From the IMG/VR virus record IMGVR_UViG_2703718859_000013: a stretch of DNA of 8,544 bases; one strand, 5' to 3'. The notes beneath the pieces are model-generated. The model had not been told where the DNA came from. It ran no database searches and saw only the letters and a list, made by a program, of their open reading frames with translations. Both the position numbers and the translations under genes were made by a program. Below, piece by piece: positions 3,077-4,629 of the stretch. The stretch is from a virus. Lineage: Duplodnaviria > Heunggongvirae > Uroviricota > Caudoviricetes. Every line of letters starts with the position of its first letter. The first letter of the stretch is position 1.

Positions 3077-3742
3077 ATGACAACTCAAATCTCTGTTGAA
3101 ACCATCTCCCCGATTACCCATAACCAGATTCCTGTTATTACCACCGAGCTTTTGGCACAACTTTATGGCACCGAAACTAATAACATCAAAGTGAACTATA
3201 CACGCAATGCCGAGCGTTTTGTTTGTGGGAAACACTACTTCAAATTGGAAGGGGCTGGATTGCGGGAATTTAAGAACAAGGTTACTCAAAGTAACTTAGT
3301 TGCACCGCGTACAAAGCACCTCATCCTCTGGACAGAACGCGGGGCAGCCCGTCACGCAAAAATGCTCGAAACTGATCAGGCATGGGAAGTGTTCGAAAAA
3401 CTGGAAGACTGCTATTTCAGCCAGGGAAAAACAACACAAACCGAACAGCAGCCGCAGATTCAGCCACAATTCACAGCCGAGGAAATCATCCTCCTTTGCT
3501 ACATGCAGCTCTGGATGGAAAAAGCCCAGAACATCAGCAAACACCTGTATCCCATTATGAAAGAGCTGAACTCCTCATACACGAACAAGCTGTATGACAT
3601 TGCATTTGAGACCATCTACATGGTGACGAAGAACAGAGATGCGTTACTGAGGGAGGCTGCACGGCTTGACCAGTCAAGTTTTGTAGTCAAACGGGCCATA
3701 CCAATGCTGAAAAGCCTGCGGGCAAGACAATTCGAGTTTTAA
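3077..3742 (+). CDS. Phage antirepressor-like protein (Roi/Ant-like) with ORF6N-type N-terminal domain (221 aa)
   Basis: ATG 3077 with GAGGG SD at 3065..3069; N-terminus (ITTELLAQLYGTETNNIKVNYTRNAERF) resembles the ORF6N/KilA-type DNA-binding domain of lambdoid antirepressor-like proteins; the C-terminal domain is shared with the next gene. Confidence 0.7.
   Translation: MTTQISVETISPITHNQIPVITTELLAQLYGTETNNIKVNYTRNAERFVCGKHYFKLEGAGLREFKNKVTQSNLVAPRTKHLILWTERGAARHAKMLETDQAWEVFEKLEDCYFSQGKTTQTEQQPQIQPQFTAEEIILLCYMQLWMEKAQNISKHLYPIMKELNSSYTNKLYDIAFETIYMVTKNRDALLREAARLDQSSFVVKRAIPMLKSLRARQFEF
3458..3525 (+). repeat. Direct repeat copy 1 (68 bp, 67/68 identical to 4345..4412) inside antirepressor paralog 1
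   Basis: Aligned by eye: ATTCAGCC(A/G)CAATTCACAGCCGAGGAAATCATCCTCCTTTGCTACATGCAGCTCTGGATGGAAAAAGC. Confidence 0.85.
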
Positions 3743-3750
3743 GGCCAGAT

Positions 3751-3780
3751 TTGACAAATCCGCATTAGCGGGGATATATT
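3751..3780 (+). promoter_or_regulatory. Candidate sigma70 promoter (TTGACA-N18-TATATT) upstream of the second antirepressor-like gene
   Basis: Perfect -35 TTGACA at 3751..3756 and TATATT at 3775..3780 with 18-nt spacing; would give a leader of about 210 nt before ATG 3997. Confidence 0.35.
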
Positions 3781-3996
3781 CCGCTCCATGGTGCTGAACA
3801 CACCTTCGAAAGCGGAAACCGCGCCCGTCAGTCATGCGGATTTTTTATGTCCATTTTTCAGATATGGTCGGGTAGCGCGTATACCGAAAAACAGCCGCAA
3901 GGCTAAGGATGCGGGCCGAACTTTCGACGGTGTTCAAGTACCCGACCGCCCTGCTGAACACGGGGTGATCTGAACGAATCGAAAGGACATAAAACT

Positions 3997-4629
3997 ATGA
4001 GCACTCAACTTGTATTCCACAATGTTCAATTCCAGACCGTTCAACGAGATGGTCTACTGTGGTTGTCTGCCCCCCAAATAGCCAGCGCGTTACAATATGC
4101 AGATCAAAGCTCGGTAACACGCATCTATGCCCGTCACGCAGATGAATTCACAAACGGTATGACAGCCTCGGTCAAATTGACCGATCCTAAAGGGGACAAG
4201 CAAGAGACTCGCATCTTCTCATTACGCGGCGCTCACCTAATAGCGATGTTTGCTCGAACTCCAATAGCAAAAGAGTTTCGTCGCTGGGTATTGGATATTC
4301 TGGACCGTGAAGCTGAAAAAAGCGCTATACCGCCACAACCTCATATTCAGCCGCAATTCACAGCCGAGGAAATCATCCTCCTTTGCTACATGCAGCTCTG
4401 GATGGAAAAAGCACAACAACTCAGTAAGCAGCTATACCCAGTAATGAGAGAACTGAACTCTGATTACTACGGGAAACTGTTTGATCTGGCCTACGAGACT
4501 CGTCATATAACCAACCGGACTCGCGACACATTGCTCCGCGAAGCAGCAAAACTTGATCCCGCCAACTATATGGTGCATAGGGCCAGAAGCATGCTGGCGC
4601 AACTACGGGCAAGACAATTTGAATTCTGA
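3997..4629 (+). CDS. Phage antirepressor-like protein with Bro-N/Ant-type N-terminal domain (210 aa); paralog of 3077..3742 in the C-terminal domain
   Basis: ATG 3997 with AAAGGA SD; N-terminus (FQTVQRDGLLWLSAPQIASALQY) resembles the Bro-N/antirepressor N-terminal domain; C-terminal ~95 aa are about 65 percent identical to the preceding gene. Confidence 0.7.
   Translation: MSTQLVFHNVQFQTVQRDGLLWLSAPQIASALQYADQSSVTRIYARHADEFTNGMTASVKLTDPKGDKQETRIFSLRGAHLIAMFARTPIAKEFRRWVLDILDREAEKSAIPPQPHIQPQFTAEEIILLCYMQLWMEKAQQLSKQLYPVMRELNSDYYGKLFDLAYETRHITNRTRDTLLREAAKLDPANYMVHRARSMLAQLRARQFEF
4345..4412 (+). repeat. Direct repeat copy 2 (68 bp) inside antirepressor paralog 2
   Basis: 67/68 identity with 3458..3525; spacing 887 bp. 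Confidence 0.85.

Follow-up and report, generated by a model that had tools for sequence, protein, structure and literature searches.

How do two adjacent phage genes come to share one C-terminal domain behind different N-terminal domains, and what holds their products in check? This question is raised by a stretch of Caudoviricetes DNA of 8,544 nucleotides (IMG/VR record IMGVR_UViG_2703718859_000013), referred to below as the window, which corresponds to the early-right/nin/late-regulator segment of a Shiga toxin 1 (Stx1)-type lambdoid prophage. Two neighbouring genes, here termed A and B, encode two-domain proteins of the antirepressor type and contain near-identical copies of a 68-bp core. 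Sequence analysis indicates that positions 2806-4653 are likely to comprise two tandem, independently promoted and RNA-locked cassettes, in which the core would be the joint for domain exchange and, in gene B, the site of a recent conversion patch. Ahead of each gene lie a promoter and a C4-class antisense RNA, both absent from the initial annotation of this DNA, and the two RNAs stand out as the chief regulatory element here.

Two cassettes and their antisense RNAs

Both cassettes would be built in the same order, from a promoter through the leader boxes b1 and a1 and a C4-class RNA carrying the boxes a' and b' to the boxes b2 and a2 at the Shine-Dalgarno sequence, followed by a two-domain protein of the Bro network (Table 1). 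In cassette 2, upstream of gene B, the small RNA (sRNA) of the sRNA-Xcc1 family is flanked on each side by two exact 7-mer complements of its boxes, arranged in the antiparallel order that pairing needs. In cassette 1, upstream of gene A, the complements of b' are exact on both sides of the C4 RNA and that of a' is exact downstream. Shuffled flanks reached the observed box matches in none of 2000 trials for cassette 2 and in 4 of 2000 for cassette 1. No complementarity of either RNA to the flanks of the other cassette was found, and the two locks would thus be orthogonal.

The predicted transcription start of cassette 1 (~2842) coincides with the 5' end of the isrK match, and Rfam also reports a weak c4-a1b1 match at 2829-2878. 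The C4 element is predicted to fold with -44.9 kcal/mol (z = -5.0). The 36-codon open reading frame (ORF) within it is the positional counterpart of orf45 of Gifsy-1; its stop codon (3053-3055) lies 22 nt before the gene A start (3077), and the frame able to give AUGA at that start is blocked by a TAG at 3063-3065. Cassette 2 contains no orf45-like or icd-like ORF. Two further ORFs, of 61 residues (3788-3973) and 73 residues (2806-3027), overlie the RNA elements and were treated as non-genes, the internal orf45-like frame of 36 codons excepted. An 18-nt spacing, which is unusual, and the -10 hexamer TATATT are common to the promoters of both cassettes.

By analogy with phages P1/P7 and with Gifsy-1, the lock RNA would be processed from the same transcript as the antirepressor-type gene; the covariance-model match shows a tRNA-like closing stem with CACC(C) after it. 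The RNA would then pair with a2 and b2 and prevent the antirepressor-type protein from being translated in the lysogen, until the leader copies a1 and b1 compete for a' and b' and release the block, and the protein so released would promote lytic gene expression. The sequence parts of this circuit are present twice, with different box specificities, and it is therefore proposed that each protein is silenced by its own RNA in the lysogen. SOS control of the cassettes was considered and rejected, as no LexA box lies near either cassette promoter. Prophage induction, which Stx production follows, can be set off or adjusted by genes of the antirepressor type; if each gene has its own sequence-specific RNA lock, a' and a2 would be suitable mutation targets for probing Stx1 release.

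Pfam analysis assigns to gene A an ORF6N head (PF10543; residues 12-96, E 4.6e-20, 72.1 bits against a cut-off of 27.8) and a P22_AR_C tail, hereafter P22AR_C (PF10548; residues 127-191, 31.0 bits against 22.4), and to gene B a Bro-N head (PF02498; residues 12-101, E 3.6e-11, 44.0 bits against 25.6) and the same tail domain (residues 118-182, 36.2 bits against 22.4). The ORF6N domain of gene A shows up to 97% identity to 184-residue Salmonella ORF6N proteins. BLASTP aligns the two proteins with E 5e-50, and their C-terminal ~100 residues are ~68% identical in a gapless alignment with the common end RARQFEF. The shared C-terminal domain and the different N-terminal families, both put forward in the initial annotation, are thus borne out, all assignments exceeding the gathering scores.

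Table 1. Positions of the sequence elements and genes of the two cassettes and of their neighbours in the window.
Feature	Position	Strand	Remarks
Cassette 1 promoter, sigma-70-like, TTGACG-18-TATATT	2806-2835	+	10/12 matches
IsrK-type leader sRNA	2842-2915	+	Rfam isrK 54.9 bits, gathering score 50
Cassette 1 b1 box TTGGAAC	2864-2870	+	in IsrK hairpin loop
Cassette 1 candidate a1 box GAGACC	2879-2884	+	found by eye
IsrK intrinsic terminator	2894-2910 plus T-run	+	
C4 antisense RNA	2941-3024	+	Rfam C4 71 bits, gathering score 45
Small ORF, 36 codons	2945-3055	+	within C4 element; two in-frame ATGs
C4 box a' GGTTTC	2984-2989	+	loop of hairpin 2
C4 box b' GTTCCAA	2996-3002	+	single-stranded joint
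Cassette 1 b2 box TTGGAAC	3028-3034	+	
Cassette 1 a2 box GAAACC	3055-3060	+	4 nt before Shine-Dalgarno
Gene A Shine-Dalgarno AGAGGG	3064-3069	+	
Gene A	3077-3742	+	221 aa; ORF6N head, type-A P22AR_C tail
Core copy 1	3458-3525	+	in gene A; encodes IQPQFTAEEIILLCYMQLWMEKA
Cassette 2 promoter, sigma-70-like, TTGACA-18-TATATT	3751-3780	+	11/12 matches
Cassette 2 b1 box TGAACAC	3795-3801	+	
Cassette 2 a1 box TCGAAAG	3806-3812	+	
sRNA-Xcc1-family RNA	3866-3955	+	C4-class architecture; Rfam 67.5 bits, gathering score 53
Xcc1 box a' CTTTCGA	3921-3927	+	
Xcc1 box b' GTGTTCA	3930-3936	+	
Cassette 2 b2 box TGAACAC	3955-3961	+	
Cassette 2 a2 box TCGAAAG	3979-3985	+	overlaps gene B Shine-Dalgarno
Gene B Shine-Dalgarno AAGGA	3983-3987	+	
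Gene B	3997-4629	+	210 aa; Bro-N head, type-B P22AR_C tail
Core copy 2	4345-4412	+	in gene B
Intrinsic terminator, strong	4634-4653	+	closes cassette 2 before ninB
DUF977 gene	495-956		
HVO_A0114-type winged-helix partner of TumE	2080-2448	-	E 1e-24
TumE toxin gene	2441-2728	-	Pfam E 2e-14
ninB	4684-5094		after gene B, followed by Q
stx1A	7075-8031		
stx1B	8042-8311		

Several points weigh against two RNA-locked antirepressor cassettes with a conversion patch. The a1 box of cassette 1 requires one G-U pair and was spotted by eye only, and the gap between the small ORF and gene A differs from the arrangement in Gifsy-1, where the orf45 stop overlaps the anrP start (AUGA). In cassette 2, no recognisable terminator lies between a1 and the RNA, which leaves no sign there of a short decoy transcript like IsrK. 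The C4 covariance model returns no match on the sRNA-Xcc1 element at E <= 1, and the kinship of the two RNAs therefore rests on architecture and box logic and not on sequence. The donor of the patch in gene B, described below, could be any core of the gene A type in a co-resident prophage, and not only gene A. Regarding the proteins, the literature searched reports antirepressor activity (CI binding) for no combination of ORF6N or Bro-N with P22AR_C, and superinfection immunity is unaffected by the Ant protein of phage Φ24B (PMC3064807).

The unaltered immunity would also suit proteins that are not antirepressors but other DNA-binding regulators or effectors (Roi-, Rha- or KilA-like, or serving host takeover or exclusion), whose RNAs would silence a toxic product. 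This alternative seems less likely than an antirepressor role. The heads are DNA-binding-type modules, the Bro-N model being Ski/Dachshund winged-helix-like, and the ORF6N protein AnrP of Gifsy-1 raises transcription of the antQ operon while repressor binding was not demonstrated (PMC4825925). Xcc1 copies are also found ahead of symE-type and unrelated genes in Xanthomonas integrons. However, P22AR_C is the C-terminal domain of the classical P22 antirepressor, a gene of the P22_AR_N plus P22_AR_C type stands behind the same type of RNA lock, and in a distant relative the gene start carries sar, the antisense RNA of P22. Moreover, deletion of ant in Φ24B weakens induction and the late expression driven by it (PMC3064807).

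Box alleles and the sRNA-Xcc1 family

The arrangement of RNA and boxes extends beyond the window. Across 23 other loci, nearly every gene with an ORF6N, AntA or Bro-N head has a C4 RNA (with isrK) or an Xcc1 RNA 40-50 nt upstream. The a' words are CTTTCGA, CTACTTG, CTTGTAT, CTTTAG, CTTGTAAG, CTTATTTG, CTTTGCA and CTGACG in the Xcc1-type cassettes and GTTTCGA, GGTTGA and GGTTTC in the C4-type ones. These loci contain at least eight a' alleles, with a1 and a2 changing along with a' each time. The a2 box lies directly against the Shine-Dalgarno sequence in the Xcc1 type and a few nucleotides upstream of it in the C4 type. Cassette 2 of phage phiSTEC1589-Stx1c (L001, 4617-4707) has the same b' as the window but the a' word CTTGTAT in place of CTTTCGA, and its a1 and a2 are changed to match. 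RNA specificity and head domain may travel together.

For a wider view, a conserved Xcc1 word was scanned in one genome per species, which gave 111 usable sites from Xanthomonadales, Pasteurellaceae, Neisseria, Azospirillum, Desulfovibrio and others. An upstream complement of a' of at least 7 nt is present at 95 of the 111 sites, representing 58 alleles, and one of b' at 93. Downstream a2/b2 pairs, placed at or close to the ribosome-binding site, occur at ~26-32 sites, which precede pRha, ORF6N, KilA-N, P22_AR_N plus P22_AR_C, Bro-N and AntA genes. From nine Xcc1 variants aligned with MAFFT, RNAalifold retrieved no more than the closing stem and fragments, and the Rfam covariance-model matches were used instead. 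On balance, these patterns favour the view that sRNA-Xcc1 is a cis-encoded lock RNA of the C4/CI class with two hypervariable boxes, and that the tandem pair of the window forms two orthogonal locks. That the sRNA-Xcc1 leader RNA shares its box logic with C4 and comes in many orthogonal alleles is new here; in the literature searched, in which the original sRNA-Xcc1 paper was not covered, the only trace of this logic is a remark on phage APSE that places Xcc1 before an ORF6N gene.

A reading in which host mRNAs are the main targets of the C4 and Xcc1 elements, in trans, and the position of these elements beside the genes is incidental, is improbable. The literature does describe sRNA-Xcc1, an integron sRNA of Xanthomonas, as trans-acting and virulence-linked, and the Rfam name marks IsrK as an Hfq-binding RNA. 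However, a'/a1/a2 and b'/b1/b2 show coordinated three-way changes over many alleles, which argues against action in trans since a host target would be unable to co-vary in this way, and in the Xcc1 type the downstream gene bears a2 on its own Shine-Dalgarno sequence. If the cis-encoded lock is the right description, one prophage, or several co-resident ones, could harbour a number of induction switches, each triggered on its own and free of crosstalk. Should it apply across many bacterial groups, the widespread sRNA-Xcc1 family would be re-annotated and its copies upstream of potentially harmful genes explained.

The Xcc1 copies of xanthomonad integrons (L082-L201; for instance L082 ~5330-5620, - strand) consist of an IsrK-like leader, in the order promoter, b1, a1 and terminator, followed by the RNA. 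Their leader boxes co-vary with the Xcc1 RNA, and no a2/b2 pair was found at the downstream gene. A CCUCC stretch in the closing stem of the RNA is the complement of the GGAGG Shine-Dalgarno sequence further downstream, a hint that control may operate differently in these copies. Arrays were also encountered in other phages: two loci contain at least two Xcc1-type cassettes with different a' words (L013 448-531 and 1024-1107; L003 2619-2708 and 3159-3244), and a third has two Xcc1 pattern matches (L117, 5418-5441 and 7264-7287). In Stx2a_F451, one arrayed Xcc1-type cassette precedes a truncated antirepressor pseudogene. Five tandem Xcc1 copies have been reported in Xylella (PMC12189769).

Shared tails, a probable crossover joint and a probable conversion patch

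The origin of the shared tail was addressed by comparing 74 viral loci with P22AR_C relatives, together with phage and genome records. Three groups of tails emerge: type A (gene A-like), type B (gene B-like, with ~65% identity to type A) and the more remote type C. The heads form ORF6N, AntA and Bro-N clusters. The tails of genes A and B therefore belong to two old and widespread alleles, and the pair is not a fresh local duplication. Identical head-plus-linker peptides are paired with either tail type, for example NIQPVQAEPQPQ, LRNIQPVQTEQQ, NMQSAQAEPQQQ and SAIPPQPHIQPQ, and the head/tail junction always falls within the segment encoding QFTAEEIILLCYMQLWMEKAQ, which is the best-conserved part of P22AR_C, type C included. 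As judged from these sequences, this segment is the joint at which homologous recombination links head modules to tail alleles throughout the family. Whole-tail replacement via the same joint is seen in two loci that combine Bro-N heads with type-A tails (L019 and L043).

The initial annotation had proposed the core as a hotspot for shuffling and deletion. The shuffling part agrees with the linkers found identical with both tail types. The deletion part is not supported, as no hybrid of an A head and a B tail was found among the collected loci and single-gene phages. The single-gene phages POCJ13, 75/02 Stx and O104:H4 C227-11 were considered as A-head/B-tail fusions across the 68-bp repeat, and this idea was rejected because their tails are pure type A (90-91%).

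Within the shared domain, the two core copies of the window are identical at 67 of 68 positions, the sole mismatch being 3466/4353, as compared with 123 of 214 in the remainder. This agrees with the near-identity originally noticed, and the ungapped, in-frame alignment argues that no alignment error is involved. Where both genes specify the same residue (leaving out Met and Trp), the codons agree in 18 of 20 cases in the core but in 13 of 39 elsewhere (Fisher p = 3e-5).

Comparison with relatives locates the change more closely. Over its 633 positions, gene B shows only 11 differences from its nearest relative (L008, 2061-2693), and eight of these, two of them non-synonymous, cluster at 4365-4395, where the window has the type-A base in all eight cases. 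The 254-bp spacer between A and B is identical in the window and in L008. The divergent core, with its E->D and M->V replacements, is present in every one of the nearest type-B genes (L005, L008, L016 and L004 of strain 06-00048). The core allele of the window was not found in 5,426 complete E. coli genomes, where the best full-length match to 4290-4470 reached 94.5%. On this sequence evidence, gene B carries a short, private and recent gene-conversion patch of type-A sequence, in line with the conversion suggested at the outset. Its tract covers at least 31 bp (4365-4395) and at most 59 bp (4354-4412), and the core of gene A, 887 bp upstream, is the simplest and probable donor.

Purifying selection on the peptide combined with codon preference, or a nucleotide element embedded in the core, might in principle produce the same identity with no recombination, but there is little chance that this is the explanation. 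The motif QFTxEEIxxLCYMQLWMEKxQ, which includes Met and Trp codons, is kept even in the distant type-C domains (~50% identity), and the unconverted L008 pair is itself identical at 59 of 68 core positions against 125 of 214 elsewhere. However, synonymous sites in the window are identical as well, as given by the codon counts above, and the core contains no Rfam element or convincing structure. The nearest relatives of gene B, evidently functional in dozens of genomes, differ at eight sites here, and the differences form a clustered, donor-matching patch amid otherwise near-identical sequences. An assembly artefact, by collapse or chimera across a short repeat, is very improbable: short-read assemblers can mis-join at repeats, but this repeat is only 59-68 bp long, the flanks of both copies are collinear with the independent genomes L004, L007 and L008 (96-98%) with the identical 254-bp spacer, and both ORFs are intact.

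The precise location of the crossover joint and the private conversion patch are new here. With a ~60-bp coding joint that serves both domain swaps and short patches, the locus offers a clean, datable case of the rebuilding of a mosaic regulator.

The relation between the two heads is less sharply drawn. The initial annotation held the N-termini to be unrelated; their assignment to different Pfam families stands, while a remote homology is possible. The hhalign comparison of ORF6N with Bro-N gives a probability of 80.7% (E 1.3e-5, columns 1-51 only), and the BLASTP alignment of A with B reaches back through the final ~55 residues of both heads. HMMER gives no cross-matches between ORF6N and Bro-N among 30 and 35 homologues, and a PDB sequence search for head homologues returned nothing meaningful. 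Foldseek with the AlphaFold2 model of gene B (predicted local distance difference test, pLDDT, 84) reports weak Ski/Dachshund-like winged-helix matches (E ~0.04). The order of secondary-structure elements in the two heads is compatible, but the AlphaFold2 model of gene A is poor (pLDDT 54), and the structural route to head homology was dropped for this reason. The heads thus belong to different families, possibly of one ancient fold.

Genomic setting and comparison with known systems

The TumE and HVO_A0114-type genes form a toxin-antitoxin-like pair (2080-2728, - strand) directly 5' of cassette 1, and a RelE/helix-turn-helix pair occupies the equivalent position in O104:H4. The Stx1 A subunit of the window departs near its C-terminus from what we take to be the classical Stx1a sequence, and the prophage is probably of the Stx1c type. 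Four Rfam matches in the window reach the gathering level (isrK, C4, sRNA-Xcc1 and STnc100). The STnc100 sRNA match (8394-8544, + strand, 98 bits) lies ~80 nt 3' of stx1B and is clipped by the window end; the same element is described downstream of stx2 and in outer-membrane vesicles in a 2025 paper (PMC12370729).

The closest deposited phage is the Stx1c phage phiSTEC1589-Stx1c (95% over 90% of positions 2750-4700), whose record annotates the gene pair as 'antirepressor protein' and 'Rha protein'; the head of its gene B is a different Bro-N variant. The closest complete genome is that of E. coli 06-00048 (98%), and at least 80% of the segment is present in only 17 of 5,426 complete E. coli genomes. 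Existing annotations of Stx phages already include ant-type genes arranged in tandem in the nin region.

The immI locus of phages P1 and P7 (c4-icd-ant) provides the classical comparison. In P1, the system involves RNase P processing and Rho-dependent polarity. Citron and Schuster reportedly showed in 1990 that the C4 RNA of P1/P7 blocks antirepressor synthesis via a2 and b2. A published summary places this pairing at the ribosome-binding site and credits it with the block of antirepressor synthesis (PMC12197685). The window resembles immI in a structured ~80-nt RNA that would derive from the transcript of the antirepressor gene itself, in boxes a' and b' that are each matched upstream (a1/b1) and at the downstream ribosome-binding site (a2/b2), in specificity alleles that vary between related phages, and in the match of cassette 1 to Rfam C4. 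In contrast, the window is devoid of an icd homologue or of an icd-like ORF translationally coupled to ant, and in cassette 2 the antirepressor-type gene itself has a2 on its Shine-Dalgarno sequence. Its proteins combine ORF6N or Bro-N with P22AR_C and are not P1 Ant, and its two tandem cassettes are located in a lambdoid nin region.

Pairing of IsrK with the orf45/C4-like region in Gifsy-1 leads to translation of orf45 and of the coupled ORF6N protein AnrP, and AnrP raises expression of the antQ operon (Hershko-Shalev et al. 2016, PMC4825925). Cassette 1 is similar in its isrK element with terminator, its small two-AUG ORF within a C4-like element and its ORF6N protein. However, gene A has an extra P22AR_C tail, and the locus lies upstream of ninB and Q, whereas that of Gifsy-1 lies downstream of antQ. 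Gifsy-1 was not among the matches listed for the phage collection.

The Ant protein of Φ24B, from an ant-roi pair in the nin region that phages of the 933W type also have (Fogg et al. 2011, PMC3064807), is the only close analogue that has been tested experimentally. As in the window, an ORF6N plus P22AR_C protein stands behind isrK/c4-a1b1 and C4 elements and is followed by a second gene of the Bro network, roi. However, Φ24B Ant is only 48% identical, and Roi comprises pRha and ANT (KilAC) domains, has no domain in common with Ant and has no Rfam RNA upstream. Since roi and ant share no domain, Φ24B has neither a shared core nor a conversion.

The exchange of modules places both genes within the Bro network, in which heads (ORF6N, Bro-N, AntA, pRha, KilA-N, P22_AR_N) combine freely with tails (P22_AR_C, ANT, ORF11CD3 and others). 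Iyer, Koonin and Aravind are said to have described the Bro-N/KilA-N domain-shuffling network in 2002, as well as its co-location with immunity RNAs. The co-location of the network with immunity RNAs of the C4/isrK type is already known (PMC10111431). The window differs in that the crossover joint is pinned to a ~60-bp coding segment, and that one conversion event can be assigned to a single lineage.

Lastly, the Ant protein of P22 belongs to the same C-domain family, and the ribosome-binding site of its gene is likewise under antisense RNA control. Nevertheless, the RNAs of the window are co-directional, structured and of the C4 class, whereas sar is a convergent antisense transcript, and the heads of the window are not P22_AR_N. 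No sar match was found in the window at the gathering threshold, nor over 2750-4050 at E <= 1. A distant Bro-N plus P22AR_C gene has a P22-type sar opposite its start (L078, 1078-1147, - strand), in place of C4 or Xcc1. Therefore, one protein family appears to be guarded by two unrelated antisense solutions.

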